Counted from the first letter of the stretch, positions 16,493-26,581 are shown. The stretch is 26,581 nt of DNA from Bdellovibrionota bacterium (GCA_044345405.1 JBIJBE010000046.1:1-26581), one strand, 5' to 3'. Notes: generated by a model not told the origin, from the letters alone. Program-made: numbers and translations.

Positions 16493-17147
16493 AGCGGTTC
16501 TCTTCGACTTTGATGGCGTTATCGGAAAGACGATGGAGGATAGCTGTCGGGCTTGGGCACAGGCGTGCACCGAGTTCGGTCTCACCTTTGATCCAGAGGA
16601 GTTCTACCTCTGTGAGGGGATGAAGTCGACCGAATACGCCGCTCGTTTGGTGAAGCGTCATGGACGGGACGCCGCCGAGGCCGGAAAGCTCGTCGCTCGG
16701 AAGAACGAGATCTACTCGTCCAATAATCAGTTCTCATTTTACGTCGGTATCGAGAGTCTCGTGGAGCGCCTCCGAGATGACGGCATCAAGGTTGGCGTTG
16801 TATCTGGCGGGAGTCGGCAGCGTCTTCTCTCTGGTCGCTCCGGAGAGCTCCTCAAACGGTGCGATACGGTGGTTACAGGGGATGAATTGAAGCAGGGGAA
16901 ACCATCACCTGAGGGGTATATGCGTGCCGCTCATGAGCTTCAGGTGTCCCCAGCCGAATGTCTCGTAATCGAGAACGCGCCTCTTGGCATCGAGTCCGCC
17001 AAGAACGCTGGCATGCGGTGTATCGGAGTGTGCTCGACCCTCTCGTCTAGCCATTTACGGCAGGCCGATGAGGTTGTGACCGATCACGCTGAATTAGTGC
17101 AGCTCTTTGTTGATGGGGGCTCGGGTTGCCTCAAGGCGGCCCAGTAG
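16479..17147 (+). CDS. HAD-superfamily phosphatase, subfamily IA (beta-PGM/CbbY-like cap)
   Basis: Motif I FDFDGVI, motif II VVSG, motifs III/IV GKPSPEGY and VIENAPLGIESAKNAGM. Overlaps the hddA stop. Confidence 0.88.
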   Translation: MERFKAVLFDFDGVIGKTMEDSCRAWAQACTEFGLTFDPEEFYLCEGMKSTEYAARLVKRHGRDAAEAGKLVARKNEIYSSNNQFSFYVGIESLVERLRDDGIKVGVVSGGSRQRLLSGRSGELLKRCDTVVTGDELKQGKPSPEGYMRAAHELQVSPAECLVIENAPLGIESAKNAGMRCIGVCSTLSSSHLRQADEVVTDHAELVQLFVDGGSGCLKAAQ

Positions 17148-17182
17148 GATTTAGAAGGTCTCGGAGAGGAAGAGGAGGGGAT

Positions 17183-18385
17183 ATGCAATGTAGAATTTGT
17201 GACAGTACGAACCTCGTACCGGCGTTGGACCTCGGGTTGCAACCGTGGGCTAACCACTTCCTCTCATCAGAAGAGGTCGGGAGTGAGCCGAAGTACCCCC
17301 TCTCGCTCGTCTACTGTAACGACTGCTCTTGCGTGCAGCTCGACTATACCGTGCCGAAAGAGGTGATGTTCGCGGACCACACCTACGTATCCGGAACCAC
17401 CAAGACCCTCGCGCAGCATTTCATGAACACCGCTAAAGAGGTGGACAGACTCTTCACCGCCGGCAAGGCTCATAAGAGTGTGCTTGATATCGGCTCTAAC
17501 GATGGAACCCAGCTCAAGCAGTACAAGGAATTAGGCTTTGAGGTGAAAGGAGTGGAATCGTGCGCGAAGATCGCCAAGCTCGCTAACGACGCTGGTGTTC
17601 CAACGGTCGCGGAGTTCTTCAACGAGGAAACAGCTGCGAAATTAGATCAAAAATTCGACGTTATTAACGCCTCAGGTGTGTTTTTTCATCTAGAGGAGCT
17701 TCACTCCGCCACTAAAGGGATCAAGCGAGCGCTCAAAGAGGATGGCGTGTTCGTGATTCAGTTCCTCTACATGAAGAGCATTGTGGAGAACCTCGCGTTC
17801 GATCAGATTTATCATGAGCACCTTCTCTACTATACCCTTAAGACCGTTGAGAAGCTCCTGGCGCGTCACGGACTGACCGGATTTGATGGGTATCTCTCAC
17901 CGATTCACGGTGGTTCGATGATCCTCTACGTCACCCATCAGGAGGCGAACCGTCCTACGAGTGAGCGCTTGAAGGCTCTTATCGCGGAGGAGGATAAGGC
18001 GCGCTCAAATGAGCTCTCAACGTATCAAAAGTTCGCCGAGCGAGTAGCGGCCATGAAGCGTGAGACCCTCGCGTTCCTTGAGGGCGCTAAGCGAGAGGGG
18101 AAGAAGATCTTCGGATTTGGGGCTCCCGTCAAAGGAAACACCTTCCTTAACTACTGCGGAATTGGGCGTGACTACCTCGATTGTCTCGTTGAGAAGAACG
18201 AGTTGCGTCGTGGCTTGTACTCGCCGGGGATGCATATCCCGCTCGTGATTGAGAAGGAGGTATCAAACCATCCGGATATCTACTTCTGTCTCGCATGGAA
18301 CTTCAAGGACGAGATCCTCAAAAATAACAAACACCTCATCGATCAGGGGGTGAGCTTCTTTTTCCCGGTTAACCCTAAGGAGTAG
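17183..18385 (+). CDS. SAM-dependent NDP-sugar C-methyltransferase
   Basis: Zn site CRIC...CNDC, SAM motif DIGSNDG, catalytic FDQIYHEH, HGGS, GAPVKG and LAWNFKDEI, i.e. TcaB9/KijD1/EryBIII-type architecture. GGAGG RBS before ATG 17183. Confidence 0.88.
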   Translation: MQCRICDSTNLVPALDLGLQPWANHFLSSEEVGSEPKYPLSLVYCNDCSCVQLDYTVPKEVMFADHTYVSGTTKTLAQHFMNTAKEVDRLFTAGKAHKSVLDIGSNDGTQLKQYKELGFEVKGVESCAKIAKLANDAGVPTVAEFFNEETAAKLDQKFDVINASGVFFHLEELHSATKGIKRALKEDGVFVIQFLYMKSIVENLAFDQIYHEHLLYYTLKTVEKLLARHGLTGFDGYLSPIHGGSMILYVTHQEANRPTSERLKALIAEEDKARSNELSTYQKFAERVAAMKRETLAFLEGAKREGKKIFGFGAPVKGNTFLNYCGIGRDYLDCLVEKNELRRGLYSPGMHIPLVIEKEVSNHPDIYFCLAWNFKDEILKNNKHLIDQGVSFFFPVNPKE

Positions 18386-19314: not shown

Positions 19315-19437
19315 CAGGAGCGCGTGTCCAGGTCATTGGTTTGACTGACGATATGGTCGATCTCGTGGTAGGACGGGAGCCGGTTCCCGCGTGTGGTCGT
19401 TGATTCGTGGTTGTGTGTCTGCCATGCTCCTCTTCCC

Positions 19438-20595
19438 ATGACGAGTAATTGCTCCCCTTCAAGCACTGCCCATGAGCACGTGACCGACCAACCGGTTTGT
19501 TTGAGTGCGTTGTCCTGTTCGCCTGTCGAGGCCGAAGCGTTTCGCGCGGCTCTCCCGCGTGGGAGTCATCTTAGAAACTTCGCGGTAGGTTGTCTCTCCG
19601 CCTACGCTCAATCTGGTGGGTTGGTTGGACTTGATCCAGCGGTGTTTAGCGCCGCGAACGATCTTTCTGGGAATCTCTCACGGGCTATCATTCCGGCGCT
19701 TCTTCGTGATCTCGGTGAAAGCGGGGTTGTTGTAAAGGGGATCACACCCTTTGACGCTTATGTTGGCGTTTTTCCCTCATCTTCGTTTATCCGAGCGGCA
19801 CTGCACGACTCGTCGTTCTTGGGCCACGTTTCTCCGGCTGAAATGAAATACCTCGGGCAGCTATCTTCCACGCTTTCGGATACATCGCGTCATGAGGTGG
19901 AGGCGCGATGGCTCAATCAGATCAGCTCGGCTTTCTTATGCGTCGCCTATGGAAGTGGACTTAGCGTCTCAAACCTGTCGAAGTTTCTTCCGGATTTCGA
20001 TGGTAAAGAGAAACGTATCTCGACGGTCCTCGCAGCGTTGCATGATAGTGAGGTGTTCACCCTATCAACCGCTGGAGTTCAGCCCGAGATTTTTGTTTCG
20101 GAAGCTCTATTCGAACGGCTTGAGGATGGAAATCTCGCCGAGACATTGAGGCGCCCTACACGAGAGCCTATTCCCTTTCCGTTCGTGATGCGTGAACGTC
20201 AGCGGTTGGAGGAAGCTGTCACGGCCACTGATGGTAGTGGTGACACGCAGCGCCCAGTTGGTGTGGCGCGCGATATGAAAACGGTCGGACGCCCTCGTGT
20301 AACAGCCCCCCGGGCGGAATGTAAGGTGATGCCCGTCTCCGTTGCGAGTGCTGATGCTCCCAAAGATGGCAATAGAGCGGGACGGGAGGTTCGTGACCGT
20401 ATCTTAGGTGTATTCGAGAAAGCTCCCTCTCTTAGCATGGGAGATCTCATGGCGTCCCTCACTGATCTCAACCTCACCGACGCGAACGTTCGGTATCACG
20501 TTGATTTACTCTGCGAGAAGGGCGCGCTCACGCGAACGGGGCGAGGGCGTGGGGCTCGGATATCTCGTATTCGGGGGACCGAAGGGGTGTTCTGA
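19438..20595 (+). CDS. hypothetical protein with C-terminal winged helix-turn-helix
   Basis: Long ORF whose C-terminus (RDRILGVF..LSMGDLM..LTDANVRYHVDLLCEKGALTRTGRGRGAR) fits a wHTH with wing. The N-terminal 250 aa are unrecognised and the start is uncertain. Confidence 0.6.
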   Translation: MTSNCSPSSTAHEHVTDQPVCLSALSCSPVEAEAFRAALPRGSHLRNFAVGCLSAYAQSGGLVGLDPAVFSAANDLSGNLSRAIIPALLRDLGESGVVVKGITPFDAYVGVFPSSSFIRAALHDSSFLGHVSPAEMKYLGQLSSTLSDTSRHEVEARWLNQISSAFLCVAYGSGLSVSNLSKFLPDFDGKEKRISTVLAALHDSEVFTLSTAGVQPEIFVSEALFERLEDGNLAETLRRPTREPIPFPFVMRERQRLEEAVTATDGSGDTQRPVGVARDMKTVGRPRVTAPRAECKVMPVSVASADAPKDGNRAGREVRDRILGVFEKAPSLSMGDLMASLTDLNLTDANVRYHVDLLCEKGALTRTGRGRGARISRIRGTEGVF

Positions 20596-20716: not shown

Positions 20717-21949
20717 ATGTCATCCGTGAACACCGCCCCCTCGAACACGGCTATCTCGCTTGAGTCGCTTGCTCTGTCTCCGGTGCAGCAATTTATTCAG
20801 TCCGAGCTCACCGCTCTTCAACAAGGGGAGCTTCGGGGAGAGCGTCAGATTAAAGCGCTCTTTGACCTCTTGCCGGAGGGAACGGCGTCTCAGATCGCGC
20901 TTGCTGAGCGCTTGCAGTTAGCGCTTTTGGCGGAGGGATGCCCTTTAGCCCAACTGCCGAGTCTTGGTATCGACATAGAAAGCCAACCCGATGGATCGAA
21001 AACGATATCCTATTATGAGGTGATTCATCCGTCGACTCCGTTGACCGAGGAACAACTGAATCCGAGCTCCGAGGATTCGCCACTCTTTGCCCGGGAAGTC
21101 CCCATGGAGCTGCTCGGTACTGTACGAGACGCCCGATTAGTCACTCCGCGAGTCTCTGTGCTCAGCCAGTGGACAAATCAGCTCGGCGCCGAGCGCGTAC
21201 TCGATCTTATCGGCGATCAATCCCGTCTCACCTATCACAACGGTCTTCCGATTACGTGGGACAAGAATATCGATGGGAAGGCGTGGAGTACCAACATCGA
21301 CACGGTGTACTTCAGCGATTGGTTGCGGGAGTTTGGTGCTCTCAATGGCTCGGTGAAGGTCTCCGCTGAGGTAGGCTGTGGGGCGGGTGGGATCTCCCAG
21401 GCGGTACTGGCGAGCTGCCCGAATCTGACTAAGCATATCTACACCGATATCGATCCCAACGCGATAAACTGCGCTCGTCGCAATCTGACTCCACTCGCTG
21501 GAGACGCGGAGGTGTCGTGGCTGCTCGGGAAAGGTATTCAAGGGATCGTGGCGCCAGGAACGCTCGACCTTCTCGTTACGAATCCACCCTATATTCCTAC
21601 CCCTTCGGGTGACGGTGATAAGGATCATTACAGTGGCACCAAATTGATTAAGCGGCTTTTTGAGGACGGGATGCATCTTCTTAATCCCAACAACCCTGAT
21701 GCCGCCATCTATGTGCAAATGAGCAGTGTAACTCTGCCGGACTTCGCCCGGTACCGCGCGGAACACCCAGAGGTAGAGGTAACGAGTATCTGTACCCCCG
21801 TTCGCGTTCCACTTCGGATCTCCGGTCTGTTGCGTGAGCCCGAGGTTTTGGACTTTGTTACTCAGCAGGGTGGTCTTGAGGTGGTTGAGAACGATCCCCT
21901 TAGATACTACCACCGGATCATGGCTTTCCGGTTGAAGCCGAGAGCGTAG
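20717..21949 (+). CDS. class I SAM-dependent methyltransferase, HemK2/PrmC-like, with long N-terminal extension
   Basis: Motif I AEVGCGAGGIS, motif II YTDIDPNA, and DLLVTNPPYIPT. Confidence 0.78.
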   Translation: MSSVNTAPSNTAISLESLALSPVQQFIQSELTALQQGELRGERQIKALFDLLPEGTASQIALAERLQLALLAEGCPLAQLPSLGIDIESQPDGSKTISYYEVIHPSTPLTEEQLNPSSEDSPLFAREVPMELLGTVRDARLVTPRVSVLSQWTNQLGAERVLDLIGDQSRLTYHNGLPITWDKNIDGKAWSTNIDTVYFSDWLREFGALNGSVKVSAEVGCGAGGISQAVLASCPNLTKHIYTDIDPNAINCARRNLTPLAGDAEVSWLLGKGIQGIVAPGTLDLLVTNPPYIPTPSGDGDKDHYSGTKLIKRLFEDGMHLLNPNNPDAAIYVQMSSVTLPDFARYRAEHPEVEVTSICTPVRVPLRISGLLREPEVLDFVTQQGGLEVVENDPLRYYHRIMAFRLKPRA

Positions 21950-21954
21950 AATTG

Positions 21955-22102
21955 GAGACGGAAACGTAAACGTGACCGTTTACGTGGACGTAAAAATGAA
22001 CGACCTCAAAGCGCTCGGCCTAGGTTCCCTTCGGTGTGCCGTCCACGGTGAATCGAAGGGCGTCATCGTTCGGGTACGTTCACGTTTACGTGCACGTTCA
22101 CG
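21955..22102. repeat. inverted arrays of degenerate hexamers (TRNACG / CGTNYA) flanking a central hairpin
   Basis: Left arm GAGACG GAAACG TAAACG TGACCG TTTACG TGGACG ...... TGAACG. Right arm CGGGTA CGTTCA CGTTTA CGTGCA CGTTCA. Central stem CCCTTCGGT (22027-35) / ATCGAAGGG (22052-60). Confidence 0.75.
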
Positions 22103-22126
22103 GGGCAATATCTACGGGCCTGAGAG

Positions 22127-23089
22127 TTATACCTCAGGAAACCACCGAACCTTTGGATATCGAAATTTGGTGAGGAGCTTAATGTTGGTGACCGAGCTCC
22201 CAAACGCTTCGTAGATCTCCTGCATAATAACGCTGACATCTTCTTGCGCGGGAACCTCAACACCTATCTCGAATCCCCATACGCCGAAGCACTCGAATAG
22301 ATACACCACATCAGGGTGTTGGGAGCAGAAGGCGTGCATCTTCTTGCTCATATCGGGATCGATACCCTTGGTATAGATGAGAAGCTTATAGCTTTGCCTC
22401 TCAAATTTTGACGGGCTTACGACGTAGATATCCCCAACGATGACCTTCCTTTCTCGGAGCTTTTTGATTCGTAGTTCAAGTGTCGAGAGGGGAACTCGAA
22501 CCTTGCTCGCGAGTTGGCGGTGGGAGAGATCTCCAAAGGTTGAGAGCGCGCCGAGTACACGCATATCGAGTTCGTCGACCTCCACAGGCTCGTCGGTGTA
22601 TCGGATGTGAATCGGGTCCACCGAAAATTTTCGAGAGGAGAGGTATCGTCGTGGATAGAGCGTGGAGGAGATAGTGAGAGAGACCGCTTTCTCAAGGAAG
22701 ACATCTTTGTGTTTCCGAGAGATAGAGTGGAGGAAGTCGATCACGTGGGCGGGGCGTCTGGCGCAAAACGCGACGCCGTAGTGATACTCCCCGCCGAATT
22801 CACCAACCCACAGTACCTCTGGCGAGGAGACGAACGATTTCACAAGCGCCTGTCGCGCGGTCTTTCCCAAAGCTGCGGAGGAGAAGAATACGTTGTATAC
22901 GGAGAACCCGATCTGATGAAGGTTGATGACGGGGAGCGGTCGGATAATCTCCCGTTCCCTCAGGCGCCGGAGAGCGTGCCGAACGATATGTTCACGATAC
23001 CCTGACTCCTTACGCAGTACCTCAATCGGCGCGTGAGCTCGAAGCTCGGCGGCCGCCAGAATCGTCGCCTCTTTGTCGCTTAACTTCAT
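22127..23089 (-). CDS. tandem (double) Lrp/AsnC-family transcriptional regulator
   Basis: Two HTH+RAM units: MKLSDKEATIL..VRHALRRLREREII..INLHQIG..EFGGEYH, and VDELDMRVLGAL..SHRQLASKVRVPLSTLELRIKKL..ECFGVWG. GGGGAG RBS before ATG 23089. Confidence 0.82.
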   Translation of the reverse strand: MKLSDKEATILAAAELRAHAPIEVLRKESGYREHIVRHALRRLREREIIRPLPVINLHQIGFSVYNVFFSSAALGKTARQALVKSFVSSPEVLWVGEFGGEYHYGVAFCARRPAHVIDFLHSISRKHKDVFLEKAVSLTISSTLYPRRYLSSRKFSVDPIHIRYTDEPVEVDELDMRVLGALSTFGDLSHRQLASKVRVPLSTLELRIKKLRERKVIVGDIYVVSPSKFERQSYKLLIYTKGIDPDMSKKMHAFCSQHPDVVYLFECFGVWGFEIGVEVPAQEDVSVIMQEIYEAFGSSVTNIKLLTKFRYPKVRWFPEV

Positions 23090-23184
23090 ATCTGAAAATC
23101 TCCCCTGTTTTGGGGTTCGAAGCAACGACGATTTCAGAAAGGTTTGGGAATCCCTGGACGGGTCATCAATAATTAGGTGAGTTC

Positions 23185-24717
23185 TCATCGGTACAAACCT
23201 CGCTCCTTTGTGTAGTGGGGTACCCCGGGGGGAAGTGGAAGTTTCTCCTCGCCGCGCGCGATTCGCTGACGCAGTTCCGTTGAACTGAGTGGTTGCCCCT
23301 CGTAGGGCACCACGTTGGCTACAAGGCTCTCGACAGTTGAGGGTCCCAGCTCCCGCGTCAACTTTTCGAGGAGTTTATGATCGTTCGCGATATCACTGAC
23401 GCCAGGTCGTTCAACAGGGATAAGCTCCGCGAGGTTCGGAATGCGGAGGTAGTCCTTCCATCGAGAGAACGTGACGAGGCTGTCAGCACCCACGATGAGA
23501 AAGAGTCGACATTGCTCGGGTGAGAGCTCTTTGCGGAGGCGTTCGAGGGTTTCAATCGTATACGCGACCCCTGCGGTCCTCGACTCAAAGGTTGAGACGA
23601 ACATCCGAGGATCGTTTCGAAGGGCGTAGAAGAGCATATCGACCCTCTCAAGGGGAGACGCGTGAGGTTCGCGCTCCTTGAGGGGGTTATGTCCCGTTGG
23701 GAGGTAGATAACGGCGTCGAGGTGATGGTGCTCAGCCGCGCGTCGTCCGATCTCGATGTGCGCGTTATGGACGGGGTCGAAGCTGCCTCCAAGGATTCCC
23801 ACACGCCCGGTAAGATGCGCTACGTTCGTGAGCAGAGGCGAAGGAGGAACCTCAGCGAGTTGGTTTCGTACCTCAACGGATATCTCTGGATGGATAATTC
23901 GAAATTGCGAGAGCGCCATCGAGAGGAGTTCCCCGTGATTCGCGTACAACGAGCGGATTAGATCAGGGGTCACGGTCATCCATCTGGCGTCCAGGGCGTC
24001 TGATAATCCCGTTGGTGCGGAGTGGTGAATCGCGCTCTGGGGTGAGAGATGAAAGTGATAGGCACTCGTCTCCACCCACGCGTTGTCCGTCACTCGGGGC
24101 CCATCGCCGACGCCTTGATAGACAACGTGAGGAGATGTTTCATCCATCGTTATGCCGGTCTCCTCGGTTAATTCGCGGTACGCGGCGGCAAGTGGTGTTT
24201 CTCCATCATCAACCATGCCACCAGGGATCGCCCATGCGCCACACCCTCGCTGAATGAGAAGGATCTCGAGGAATCCGGTGGTAGGAGATACGCGTGTCAC
24301 GATGGCGTCAGCGGCGTGATTCGGTCCCCATTTTCCGAGCAACCCTCGACCCTGGATACCCGTGCGGCCAAGAGGATTGAGGGGGCGTCCCGTTTCCTGG
24401 TCATGCTCAATCGGTCCTTCAAAGCTCTTCATCTTTCCTGTCGCGCTCCACTCCAGGAACTCATCGCGGGAAACGGTGGCGGGATCCGCCCATCCGCCAG
24501 GAACTACGGTTCGGTCGTTCAAGGCGAGTTTTGGAGACTCGTAGAAGGGGGGATCGTACTGCTGATGTTCGTGTCGCCACGCACGTACGTGTGGTGGGAC
24601 GTGGGTGCGTTCCGGGTAGCCCGCCGCGGTCGTGAGCGGCTTCTCTGAGCGAGGCGGGAAGGTGAGAGCGGACTCGGTTCGATGTTCAACGGTGTGCGTG
24701 CGGTTTACTGCGAGCAT
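23185..24717 (-). CDS. nadD: fusion of NUDT9-type ADP-ribose pyrophosphatase (N-terminal) and nicotinate-nucleotide adenylyltransferase NadD (C-terminal)
   Basis: N part: WADP, NPLGRTGIQGRGLLGKWGPNHAADAIVTR, Nudix box GMVDDGETPLAAAYRELTEETG, TDNAWVET, LYANH. C part: GILGGSFDPVHNAH, NPLK, YTIETL, IVGADS..F.RW, LSSTELR. AGGAGG RBS before ATG 24717. Confidence 0.9.
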   Translation of the reverse strand: MLAVNRTHTVEHRTESALTFPPRSEKPLTTAAGYPERTHVPPHVRAWRHEHQQYDPPFYESPKLALNDRTVVPGGWADPATVSRDEFLEWSATGKMKSFEGPIEHDQETGRPLNPLGRTGIQGRGLLGKWGPNHAADAIVTRVSPTTGFLEILLIQRGCGAWAIPGGMVDDGETPLAAAYRELTEETGITMDETSPHVVYQGVGDGPRVTDNAWVETSAYHFHLSPQSAIHHSAPTGLSDALDARWMTVTPDLIRSLYANHGELLSMALSQFRIIHPEISVEVRNQLAEVPPSPLLTNVAHLTGRVGILGGSFDPVHNAHIEIGRRAAEHHHLDAVIYLPTGHNPLKEREPHASPLERVDMLFYALRNDPRMFVSTFESRTAGVAYTIETLERLRKELSPEQCRLFLIVGADSLVTFSRWKDYLRIPNLAELIPVERPGVSDIANDHKLLEKLTRELGPSTVESLVANVVPYEGQPLSSTELRQRIARGEEKLPLPPGVPHYTKERGLYR

Positions 24718-25727
24718 GGTGTGCCTCCTGGGATAATCACCTGACATGGATGGGGATCGAGGGAGATCTCAGCGACCGTGCCTCGTGGAAAGGGAATTGA
24801 GTCGAGGGAATCGCGACTGGCGATCCCCTCATCGTCGTTCAGTGATGTAATACGAAGGGATTCTCCCTCAAGGAGGGATCCCTCAACGAGCTTCGGAAGC
24901 TTAGTCACCCGTTTCCCGTCGACCTCCTCCACCGTTACCGATGGCTCTCGCAGTTCAAATCGAGCGAATCGAGCGGTTTTCGGAAATGAGCGATCCTGCT
25001 CACCAAGGTAGAGACCCGCGCTCGCGTACCAACCGGTGGATCCTACGCCGGTGCTGATAAGGAGCCCTGAAGACCTTTGTGTGATCTTCTCTCCCCGATA
25101 CTCGAGCTCGTGTCGTGAGGTCAGTCGAAAGTCCCGTTTCCCCAAAACGATATCGTTAATCGCGGAGCCCCGCTCGATCCCGTCTACGGTGAGCGCGAGC
25201 TTGGTCCACTCCTCAACACGATAATCGCCGGTTTCCAGTCGATGTAACGCGTCTGGAAGTCGCTCGATCGTTATCGGTAGAAGGGCTCCGACGCTGGAAG
25301 CTGGATCGGAGTTTACCCCGAGAATCGGGAGATCGCTCGGGGCTCGATGGCTTAGTAGTTTAAAGAAATCATCGCCCCCAAGCGCGATAATCACCTTACA
25401 TCGAGAGAGTATCTCCGTTCTCTCAAGCTGCTCCAAGGAGATGATCTGTTCCGAGCCTAATTCCGCCGCGCACAGTGTGAGCGCCTGCTTGTGGCGCAGG
25501 TGTGCCCCGAGGATCCGCAGACCGCTCTCCCCGAGGGAGTTGTAACGAGCGACGAGGTCGTCATCTGAGAGCTTCGTTTCGAGCTGCTCCCGCTCAAATC
25601 GACTCATCTTGCTCACGACGATGATCTGATCTCGAGCGATGATGGGAGCGCGTCCAGCGCGGGTGTTGGACGCCTGAGGCATCGTCAGTCCGCTAGGTTC
25701 CGGTATTCCGATCTCCTGTCTTAGCAT
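24705..25727 (-). CDS. NAD kinase family protein, NADK2 (mitochondrial-type)-like
   Basis: Contains IALGGDD, PILGVNSDP..SVGAL, AIND and QRSSGLLISTGVGSTGW. GGGAGG RBS. Sits between pncA and nadD. Confidence 0.82.
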   Translation of the reverse strand: MLRQEIGIPEPSGLTMPQASNTRAGRAPIIARDQIIVVSKMSRFEREQLETKLSDDDLVARYNSLGESGLRILGAHLRHKQALTLCAAELGSEQIISLEQLERTEILSRCKVIIALGGDDFFKLLSHRAPSDLPILGVNSDPASSVGALLPITIERLPDALHRLETGDYRVEEWTKLALTVDGIERGSAINDIVLGKRDFRLTSRHELEYRGEKITQRSSGLLISTGVGSTGWYASAGLYLGEQDRSFPKTARFARFELREPSVTVEEVDGKRVTKLPKLVEGSLLEGESLRITSLNDDEGIASRDSLDSIPFPRGTVAEISLDPHPCQVIIPGGTPCSQ

Positions 25728-25747
25728 GGTCCCTCCCTTGTATGACC

Positions 25748-26431
25748 TTAAGGACGTAACTCAACCCGGCGTGTTGGTGCTCGCTCGGGAACGAGCGAAC
25801 CGCTGGTTACAACTCCTACACCGATATTTGTGAGGTCTCGCAACGTGCGTAAATCATCTCCGGGCGTGATGTTGACGGCGCGACATCCGTCGATGACTAC
25901 TTGAGTTTTGAATCCGAGACCGGCGGCGTCGCGCGCTGTCGCGGCGACGCAGTAGTCAAGGGCGAGGCCGCATATCGAGAGCTCGACATCTTTGAGTTCG
26001 ACTCCTCGGCTGATCGCCGCTTGGGCGATTATCGAGCGAAGCTGAGTCTCTTTATCGTGGTTGTTATCGAAGAACCCGCTATAACTGTCGACCGACGGTG
26101 ACGTGCCTTTCTCAACTATGTAGTTGATAGACGCCCTGTCGAGGAGTGGATGGAGCTCGGCGCCTAAACTTCCTTGCGCGCAGTGCCTTGGCCACAACGT
26201 TTGGGGCCCGCTCGTGTTCTCTACCCGTTCAAAGACCGAGCGTCCCTCATGGTTGTCCGCGAAGCTCACGTGATCGGCCGGGTGCCAATCCATTGTCGCT
26301 ACCACCAGGTCAAAAGCGCCTGATCTCATCAGGGCATTTGCTACAGGCACCACCTGATCGCCCTCTGGTACCGCGAGCGATCCACCGGGACAGAAATCGT
26401 TTTGAATGTCGACCAGAACCAAGACCTTCAT
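25748..26431 (-). CDS. pncA: nicotinamidase/pyrazinamidase
   Basis: Contains VDIQNDFCPGGSLAVP, DWHP..H.SF, WPRHC, KG...DSYSGF and GLALDYCV (catalytic D/K/C). AAGGAGG RBS. Confidence 0.96.
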   Translation of the reverse strand: MKVLVLVDIQNDFCPGGSLAVPEGDQVVPVANALMRSGAFDLVVATMDWHPADHVSFADNHEGRSVFERVENTSGPQTLWPRHCAQGSLGAELHPLLDRASINYIVEKGTSPSVDSYSGFFDNNHDKETQLRSIIAQAAISRGVELKDVELSICGLALDYCVAATARDAAGLGFKTQVVIDGCRAVNITPGDDLRTLRDLTNIGVGVVTSGSLVPERAPTRRVELRP

Positions 26432-26440
26432 GATGCCTCC

Positions 26441-26581
26441 TTATTTCTTTGAGTTATAAAAGCCGTGAGAGATCGGCATACGCCTTCCGATTCCGAATGA
26501 GTGCGGCGTTACCCGGATTCCTGGCGCCGCTTGACGTCTCTTCCATTCCGAGCGGTCTATTCGAGCGAACGTTCGGCGGAT
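26441..26581 (-). CDS. nadE: NAD+ synthetase (glutamine-dependent type), 3' end only; gene runs off the window
   Basis: Manual minus-strand translation gives IRRTFARIDRSEWKRRQAAPGIRVTPHSFGIGRRMPISHGFYNSKK*, matching the C-terminal E.KRRQ..PG..FG..RR.PI motif of Gln-dependent NadE. The stop is 9 nt before the pncA ATG. Not in the ORF track. Confidence 0.88.
   Translation of the reverse strand: MRRTFARIDRSEWKRRQAAPGIRVTPHSFGIGRRMPISHGFYNSKK

Follow-up and report, generated by a model that had tools for sequence, protein, structure and literature searches.

Gene content of the locus

The 26,581-nt window analyzed in this work is the entire contig C4 of a Bdellovibrionota bacterium assembly (GCA_044345405.1, JBIJBE010000046.1:1-26581), from an uncultured lake bacterium. 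The assembly comprises 85 contigs and 3.59 Mb and is rated 99.4% complete. Region 22127-26581 of the window carries, all on the minus strand, a run of genes for the synthesis of nicotinamide adenine dinucleotide (NAD) and of its phosphate (NADP): the 3' end of nadE, pncA, a gene for an NADK2-type NAD kinase-like protein, and a gene in which a NUDT9-type Nudix domain is fused to NadD (NUDT9::NadD). A gene for a tandem Lrp/AsnC protein follows. An initial annotation, made from the sequence of the window, had described these genes, their strand, their gaps and overlap, and their ribosome-binding sites, and all of these were recovered when recomputed (Table 1).

The unit extends beyond the contig end. 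The last 127 nt of contig C30 are the exact reverse complement of the last 127 nt of C4, and the nadE reading frame is continuous through this overlap. Given that an archaeal-type pncB precedes nadE on the adjoining C30, the pncB that appeared to be missing is the first gene of the unit. Relatives that have pncB, nadE and pncA together on one contig (L106, L108, L110, L120 and L129) support this join. The full unit is pncB-nadE-pncA-NADK2-like-NUDT9::NadD, followed by the tandem-Lrp gene. The initial annotation had held that PncB and Prs are needed and lie outside the window, and had proposed to look for both past position 26581. Both do lie outside the window, yet pncB is not missing, as it adjoins nadE on C30, while prs is not adjacent and is found on C76.

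Table 1. Features of the unit, listed in the direction of transcription.
Feature	Contig	Coordinates	Strand	Description
Palindrome GGTAAT-N10-ATTAGC	C30	15136-15157		candidate operator; 66 nt before the pncB ATG
Archaeal-type pncB	C30	15223..16506		427 aa; ends 4 nt upstream of nadE
nadE, 5' part	C30 (L005)	16511..18343		first 611 codons
nadE, 3' end (glutamine-dependent NAD+ synthetase)	C4	26581..26441	-	46 codons + TAA; from translation
nadE/pncA gap	C4			9 nt, GGAGGCATC
pncA (nicotinamidase)	C4	26431..25748	-	227 aa; NF008623, isochorismatase domain
pncA/kinase gap	C4			20 nt
NADK2-type NAD kinase-like gene	C4	25727..24705	-	340 aa; from fold and sequence matches
Kinase/fusion overlap	C4			13 nt
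Nudix::NadD fusion	C4	24717..23185	-	510 aa; NUDT9-type ~35-280, NadD ~305-510
Fusion/Lrp spacer	C4	23090..23184	-	95 nt
Tandem Lrp/AsnC gene	C4	23089..22127	-	320 aa; profile matches in each half

The gene content, together with the recurrence of this order in relatives, bears out the view of the initial annotation that the genes form one compact module for rebuilding NAD(P). This is probably an accessory, self-contained and separately regulated Preiss-Handler operon, which leads from nicotinamide or nicotinate to NAD and on to NADP.

Family assignments

PncA belongs to the nicotinamidases, with 220.3 bits against model NF008623 (cut-off 174) and a match to the Acinetobacter nicotinamidase 2wt9 over residues 3-189 (E 9.5e-46). 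Its ...DYCV segment pairs with ...DFCV of 2wt9, and we take the cysteine in this segment to be the catalytic one. NadE belongs to its curated family as well, with 507.8 bits against NF010588 (cut-off 479), and contains both the CN_hydrolase and the NAD_synthase Pfam domains. For the PncB-like protein, the best family is PRK08662, archaeal-type nicotinate phosphoribosyltransferase (E 6.8e-48). The protein has a QRPTase_N domain, and its best match in the PDB is the Pyrococcus structure 2i14 (E 4.8e-22), followed by the Thermoplasma nicotinate phosphoribosyltransferase 1ytd.

In the fusion, the Nudix half matches human NUDT9 (1q33) over residues 45-279 with an E-value of 3.8e-33, and the next matches are the NUDT9-homology domains of TRPM2. 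The Nudix box has the consensus Gx5Ex7REUxEExGU. That of the fusion reads GGMVDDGETPLAAAYRELTEETGI, and its residues E173, R181, E185 and E186 are invariant among 27 aligned fusions, which go down to 37% identity. With an intact Nudix box and homology reaching into the N-terminal region of NUDT9, this half is of the NUDT9 type, as initially annotated, and is predicted to be specific for ADP-ribose. The NadD half is a member of TIGR00482 (137.1 bits, cut-off 112.45). NadD proteins bind the nucleotide through the motifs GxFxPxH..H and SxTxxR, which are present here as GGSFDPVHNAH and SSTELR, and G310, D314, H320, S478 and R483 are invariant in the same 27 fusions.

About 60 protein clusters contain the fusion, all of them derived from metagenomes or metagenome-assembled genomes, and the protein-cluster search also returned numerous NUDT9-type proteins from bacteria. 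The designation of the two enzymes as eukaryote-like in the initial annotation hence reflects which members of these families were studied. By Atlas features, the fusion comes nearest to phage cytidylyltransferase/Nudix proteins, with scores of 0.88-0.89, which we consider a lead only. Within the literature searched here and below, which left out subscription journals and supplements, no NUDT9::NadD fusion was found among works on NUDT9, NadD and bacteria.

The kinase-like protein finds human mitochondrial NADK2 (7r4j) as its best PDB match by sequence (E 6.2e-10), ahead of M. tuberculosis PpnK (3.3e-8). Its structural model, which has a predicted local distance difference test score (pLDDT) of 88, has NADK2 (7r4l) as its best fold match, with an E-value of 1.6e-20, a template modelling (TM) score of 0.66, and about 18-20% identity in the fold alignment. 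NADK2 chains take the first seven Foldseek ranks (E 1.6e-20 to 5e-19), and bacterial NAD kinases begin at 1.7e-18; the margin of NADK2 over the canonical kinases is small. According to PMC3535332, in which NADK2 was identified, the human enzyme (C5orf33) has Ser-306 and Trp-319 where canonical kinases have Asp and Tyr. In the kinase-like protein, S220 and W233 show the 13-residue spacing of human NADK2. Neither varies among the 27 aligned sequences, and the glycine-rich segment GxGSTGW is invariant as well. The Ser/Trp signature and the fold thus place the protein with the NADK2 subtype, in agreement with the initial "NADK2-like" label.

NADK2 is treated as an animal and protist enzyme in PMC3535332 and PMC9245612, and the latter, a structural paper on human NADK2, says that bacterial cells use a single NAD kinase. 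No bacterial NADK2-type kinase was found in the literature searched. Should the kinase prove active, it would be relevant to where mitochondrial NADK2 came from.

The last protein resembles Lrp/AsnC regulators in each of its halves, as the initial annotation of a "double Lrp" implied: residues 3-122 match PH1519 (E 1.1e-13), residues 171-287 match ST1022 (E 7e-13), and the second half scores 25 bits against the helix-turn-helix (HTH) model HTH_24 (cut-off 21.9). The structural model (pLDDT 90) comprises two units, each with an HTH and a beta-alpha-beta-beta-alpha-beta fold. The protein accordingly has the Lrp/AsnC architecture twice over, with a winged HTH and a RAM-type domain in each half, and is predicted to bind DNA.

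Conservation and genomic context

The 124 species genomes of the GTDB phylum were searched for the kinase (E up to 1e-25) and for the PncB type (E up to 1e-40). The kinase is found in 26 genomes and the PncB type in 27, with 19 genomes having both, seven the kinase only and eight the PncB only, and all positives fall within one order. The complete order pncB-nadE-pncA-kinase-fusion-Lrp is present on a single contig in L106 (G014), L120 (G107) and L129, and versions that are cut by a contig end or rearranged are present in L105, L107, L108, L109, L110 and L116. Among the 24 same-genus genomes first sampled, four have the full-length fusion, one has a copy cut by a contig end, and one has a stand-alone NUDT9-type gene beside pncA. 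G040, a member of another family of the order, has the fusion as well. Variants of the unit include an unfused NadD (G092, G097), rearranged orders (G080, G097), and a short Nudix gene followed by an aldehyde dehydrogenase (G033).

The kinase alignment also matched 80 metagenome loci. Of these, 37 are at least 6 kb long, and 18 of the 37 contain at least one other NAD or ADP-ribose gene. Some of the metagenome loci are near-duplicates and the relatives are not independent, so these counts are descriptive and do not constitute a test. When contigs were scanned with the fusion alignment, the universal NadD motif dominated the result (80 NadD-only loci), and neighborhoods were taken from the genome and metagenome searches instead. 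Given its recurrence in relatives, the gene order is far above chance; the conserved clustering expected of a single module is found, though patchily. The tandem-Lrp gene adjoins NAD genes in nine fetched genome loci (L105-L109, L111, L115, L118 and L120) and in four metagenome loci (L129, L133, L135 and L136).

The palindrome upstream of pncB (Table 1) is a candidate operator. For each of 14 pncB orthologues, the preceding 300 nt were searched for the pattern G[GC]TAAT-N10/11-ATTA[GC]C, which is exact in 4/14 and present with at most two arm mismatches in 11/14, always 82-132 nt from the start. Without the near-duplicates L129, L135 and L136, these values become 4/11 and 8/11. In 500 shuffles, the pattern occurred in 1.0 locus on average and never in more than 4. 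G009 keeps the arms of the palindrome but has a wholly different spacer. As to known regulators, no match to the NrtR model NF050029 was found in the genome at E-values up to 0.001, a narrow model which a distant NrtR could escape, and NiaR (3H) was not found in the genome either; the unit is hence not assigned to an NrtR regulon. In the literature searched, no Lrp-type regulator of NAD salvage was found.

The unit is a second set of NAD genes and not the housekeeping one. Elsewhere in the genome are nadA (C50), nadB (C72), nadC (C64), the only Prs match (prs, C76), a canonical nadK with the motif GGDGTL (C48), and a separate, adjacent nadD-nadE pair (C79). The operon copies are 25-29% identical to these housekeeping paralogues; they are old and distinct lineages rather than recent duplicates. 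The GC content of the operon genes, overall and at third codon positions, is near the genome mean.

Each enzyme of the unit belongs to the universal NAD pathway, and one could ask whether these are simply the only NAD genes of the organism, adjacent by chance and engaged in ordinary housekeeping. This is contradicted by the complete de novo route and the separate nadD, nadE and nadK, and also by the absence of the kinase from 26 of 34 same-genus genomes and of this PncB type from 27 of 34 (two queries), many of which are over 90% complete. We regard a housekeeping-only role as next to impossible; the check for nadABC that the initial annotation had proposed found all three genes.

Further observations were made at the loci of relatives. 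Seven of the 12 fetched kinase loci (L113, L117, L119 and L121-L124) have no operon gene within up to about 10 kb per side, the contigs of L123 and L124 being only 2.6 and 4.8 kb long. Three other families of the order share an aldehyde dehydrogenase gene within or next to the NAD cluster (L115 2877-4523, L118 7990-9546 and L126 10291-11901). In G080, two tandem SLOG/LSDAT_prok ("SLOG in TRPM") proteins (L118 13656-14639 and 14818-15828; E 0.037 and 3.7e-10) and an EamA transporter (L118 12522-13307) sit between nadE and the tandem-Lrp gene. Given these SLOG proteins and the NUDT9 part of the fusion, both kinds of ADP-ribose module known from TRPM2 occur around bacterial NAD clusters. In the genome of the window itself, the search for LSDAT_prok returned nothing, or a weak match elsewhere only.

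Proposed function and alternative explanations

Gene content and order, their conservation, the paralogy with the housekeeping set, the family assignments and the intact motifs are direct observations, and a separately regulated salvage and recycling route is the most likely account of them. In such a route, PncA would deamidate nicotinamide, and the archaeal-type PncB encoded by the first gene would join nicotinate to phosphoribosyl pyrophosphate (PRPP). The NadD half of the fusion would then adenylylate the resulting nicotinate mononucleotide (NaMN), the glutamine-dependent NadE would amidate nicotinate adenine dinucleotide (NaAD) to NAD, and the NADK2-type kinase would phosphorylate NAD to NADP. 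The NUDT9-type half would hydrolyse ADP-ribose, the other product of NAD consumers such as the CobB-size sirtuin of this genome, to adenosine monophosphate (AMP) and ribose-5-phosphate. This would remove ADP-ribose and feed both Prs, encoded elsewhere, and the pool of adenosine triphosphate (ATP). The tandem-Lrp protein probably controls the operon via the palindrome, some 85 nt upstream of pncB.

Several observations weigh against this account. The PncB-like protein reaches 163 bits where the cut-off of PRK08662 is 243, which leaves it outside the curated family, and the canonical Pfam family of nicotinate and nicotinamide phosphoribosyltransferases, PF04095, is absent from the genome; the upstream gene is filed as an archaeal-type nicotinate phosphoribosyltransferase-like enzyme, with its specificity for nicotinate taken from context. 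The need for a second NadD, NadE and NadK in a cell with a complete de novo route is not explained. The operator pattern was derived from the same sequences in which it was counted, the loci are related, and genome-wide the exact pattern is found once, where about one occurrence is expected by chance. Finally, the catalytic activities, the kinase substrate, co-transcription, and the target and ligand of the regulator are parts of the account that we infer.

The kinase-like protein is the least certain part of the unit. Its best score among the NCBIfam models of NAD kinases is 47.6 bits, far under their cut-offs of 211-493, and the Pfam N and C domains (PF01513/PF20143) score 15 bits, below the gathering values of 25.5 and 23.7. 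The motif GGDG, named in PMC3535332 as conserved in NAD kinases, is replaced by GGDD in the protein of the window; among the 27 aligned relatives, 25 have GGDD, two have GGDN and none has GGDG, and the NE/D motif is variable within the family. Given also that a canonical NadK is already encoded in the genome, the protein may not be an NAD kinase: GGDD could mark another substrate or phosphoryl donor (NADH, NaAD, ADP-ribose or polyphosphate) or a non-catalytic role. Against this stand the fold and top sequence matches, which are NAD kinases with NADK2 first, the invariant Ser/Trp signature and GxGSTGW segment, and the fact that about half of the kinase relatives with enough flank adjoin NAD-synthesis genes. 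Strict GGDG is, moreover, also missing in 7 of the 65 eukaryotic NADK2 homologues compared in PMC3535332. A role other than that of an NAD kinase thus seems rather unlikely, if the least unlikely of the alternatives weighed here.

The control of the operon by the tandem-Lrp protein meets a further point of the same kind. The best whole-length fold match of this protein is an enzyme, NirDL (4czc; E 3e-13, TM 0.60), which raises the alternative of an Lrp-fold enzyme or scaffold akin to this siroheme decarboxylase, or of a regulator that is a mere neighbor of the NAD genes. This alternative would fit the three same-genus relatives in which the tandem-Lrp gene is followed by a gene for a protein of about 1020 aa, rather than by NAD genes only, as well as the convergent methyltransferase neighbor, kept in all four loci that extend past the Lrp gene (L106, L107, L109 and the window). 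However, no other tandem Lrp-fold protein is among the matches listed, which is why the whole-length ranking favors NirDL, and the sequence profile finds DNA-binding Lrp/AsnC regulators but neither NirDL nor AhbA/B at E-values up to 1. The winged-helix HTH, the conserved palindrome upstream of pncB, and the position of the gene beside NAD genes across several families of the order speak for a regulator of the operon as well, and we judge the alternative unlikely.

It is also conceivable that the operon is an emergency module, which restores NAD and NADP after depletion by a NADase toxin or defense effector and is a cellular counterpart of the phage NAD reconstitution pathways (NARP). In P. aeruginosa, deletion of pncB, nadD2 or nadE raises the toxicity of NatT, an NAD(P)-degrading toxin, and NatT activity leads to derepression of the cluster, as reported in PMC11535050. 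The module described here would likewise yield both NAD and NADP, it has its own regulator and ADP-ribose hydrolase, and it is accessory and patchy. The genome, at the completeness given above, nevertheless contains no RES, TIR_2 or SIR2_2 domain (other NADase families were not searched) and a single SIR2 match, in a 250-aa frame, which is the outcome of the check for TIR/SIR2 NADases suggested by the initial annotation. PADLOC returned no defense-system match for the operon proteins or their neighbors, only generic resemblance to methyltransferase, Nudix and HTH proteins; the genes around the operon are recA and those for sugar nucleotides; and the IMG/VR viral contigs hold no real match to the kinase family, with one marginal match of 37 residues. 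The chemistry, too, would be that of an ordinary, PRPP-dependent Preiss-Handler route, unlike NARP1 as described in 10.1101/2024.02.11.579819. PADLOC, the domain searches and the viral contigs therefore lend no support to the link to defense, NADases or phages that had been drawn initially. By analogy, an anti-NADase role would be plausible, if without support in this genome, and as the actual purpose of the operon we find it improbable. If the operon were induced by NAD loss, the NatT/NSPI observation in P. aeruginosa would be extended to an unrelated lineage with different parts.

A more far-reaching version of the salvage and recycling account is that the tandem Lrp represents a fourth or fifth class of bacterial NAD regulator, beside NadR, NiaR and NrtR, which senses a pyridine or ADP-ribose and switches on a stand-by NAD(P) factory, whose NADK2 and NUDT9 kin are ancestral to the eukaryotic mitochondrial parts. 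We hold this to be speculative and doubtful. Were the ancestry true, the operon would stand for a bacterial system of ADP-ribose and NAD homeostasis from which the eukaryotic NADK2 and NUDT9 parts descend.

Translation signals and neighboring features

Shine-Dalgarno-like sequences precede pncA (AAGGAGG), the kinase gene (AAGGGAGGG), the fusion (CAGGAGG) and the Lrp gene (CAGGGGAG). Two alternative starts were considered. The longer frame given by the open reading frame tool for the fusion, starting at 24747, is unlikely, as the database orthologues are 510 aa long and match the start at 24717. For the Lrp gene, the ATG at 23188 is unlikely, as the resulting 33-residue extension is not kept in relatives and the DNA preceding the MKLS start is kept. 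When the upstream regions of the window, L105, L106, L107 and L120 are compared, the 95-nt spacer is seen to hold a conserved stretch, CGTTGCTT...AAACAGGGGA, whose end is the ribosome-binding site.

Within 21900-26581, the scan of both strands returned no terminator-like site (shuffle mean 4.5), and the two promoter-like sites are not above chance (shuffle mean 1.5). Upstream of pncB, the promoter scan of the operon strand yielded nothing exceeding chance, and at Rfam gathering scores no riboswitch was found in the window or C30, the sole match being a tRNA. The stretch is present in 20 DNA runs labelled lake water metagenome, and no RNA run is among the runs listed.

The operon is surrounded by recA, a sugar-nucleotide/glycosyltransferase cluster, a HemK-like methyltransferase and a 400-aa protein. 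The methyltransferase (20717-21949, plus strand; 410 aa, HemK/MTS type, NPPY motif) is a conserved convergent neighbor of the Lrp gene, and it is also present in another family with 42% identity (G040). The 400-aa protein (19393-20595, plus strand) has no Pfam or NCBIfam match, and a homologue with 46% identity occupies the same relative place in G011. The spacer between the methyltransferase and Lrp genes (21950-22126) contains ACGT-rich repeats with a 12-nt period in five copies, which build inverted arms of 27 nt and 16 nt flanking a central hairpin. The shuffles gave no chance expectation for the 22-nt core pattern of these repeats, which may be a bidirectional terminator or an element of the repetitive extragenic palindromic type.

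In relatives, other genes accompany the tandem-Lrp gene. The protein of about 1020 aa is encoded directly after it in L108 (9679-12744, minus strand), L111 (1329-4430, plus strand) and L120 (13620-16637, plus strand). Its copies have 1006-1033 aa and are 41-43% identical to one another, with no Pfam match at E-values up to 1e-4 (sub-threshold matches only, up to E 1), no PDB sequence match at E-values up to 1, and no homologue in the genome of the window. A weak C-terminal match to it (E 4e-5) is seen in a protein of 922 aa encoded next to the G033 cluster (L126 12821-15589, minus strand). In G014, an additional tandem-Lrp paralogue with 25% identity and a half-size fragment lie upstream of pncB (L106 445-1401 and 3513-3872).

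Comparison with known systems

The kind of pathway encoded by the unit is known. Its closest known relatives are the NrtR-controlled pncA-pncB-nadD-nadE clusters and the NadM-Nudix and COG1058-PncC fusions, while three of its parts are undescribed: the NUDT9::NadD fusion, the NADK2-type kinase and the double-Lrp regulator. Each of these is a testable new part, the second as a bacterial kinase family with a systematic GGDD active-site motif and the third as an Lrp-type candidate for the control of NAD salvage, for which an operator is predicted. From its sequence, the unit would be a natural example of six NAD(P) steps, ADP-ribose disposal among them, in one transferable unit.

When the unit is compared with the phage pathways NARP1 (Adps and Namat) and NARP2 (Nampt and Nmnat) described in 10.1101/2024.02.11.579819, the likeness lies in a compact set of genes that remakes NAD from its cleavage products. 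None of their enzymes is present here, however: PF04095 is absent, there is no Adps, and the only Prs gene is far off on C76, so the unit does not belong to either pathway. Whereas NARP1 pyrophosphorylates and re-joins ADP-ribose, the unit is predicted to hydrolyse it, and its route is deamidated, needs NadE, and is encoded on a bacterial chromosome.

Human mitochondrial NADK2 (7r4j, 7n29) is the best solved relative of the kinase and shares its signature Ser/Trp, but differs in having GGDG where the bacterial protein has GGDD, at the low identity given above. Similarly, human NUDT9 (1q33) and the TRPM2 NUDT9-homology domain are the best solved relatives of the Nudix half and share its intact Nudix box; bacterial NUDT9-type proteins are many, so the eukaryotic look is a matter of study bias.

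The NadM-Nudix and COG1058-PncC proteins resemble the fusion in that an ADP-ribose pyrophosphatase is joined to an enzyme through which pyridine by-products are recycled into NAD. Unlike in NadM-Nudix, the adenylyltransferase here is NadD, the bacterial NaMN type, and the Nudix part, which occupies the N-terminal side, is of the NUDT9 type and includes the additional N-terminal region of that type. The reuse of AMP and ribose-5-phosphate via ATP and PRPP was published as a rationale for both proteins in PMC3680494, and the idea of recycling both halves of NAD is therefore not new.

Accessory pncA-pncB-nadD-nadE clusters under NrtR control are known from Pseudomonas aeruginosa and Clostridium (PMC2330246, Table 1), and that of P. 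aeruginosa buffers toxin-driven loss of NAD(P), according to PMC11535050. Like these clusters, the unit is an accessory Preiss-Handler set in which pncA and pncB are accompanied by a nadD and a nadE of its own; it comes with a dedicated regulator, in a genome that also encodes de novo synthesis. It differs from them in four respects: PncB is of the archaeal or QRPTase-like type instead of belonging to PF04095; a kinase gene is included, so that the output reaches NADP; the Nudix protein is of the catalytic-looking NUDT9 type, fused to NadD, rather than the ADP-ribose-sensing repressor NrtR; and the regulator candidate is a tandem Lrp, in a genome in which neither NrtR nor NiaR was found.

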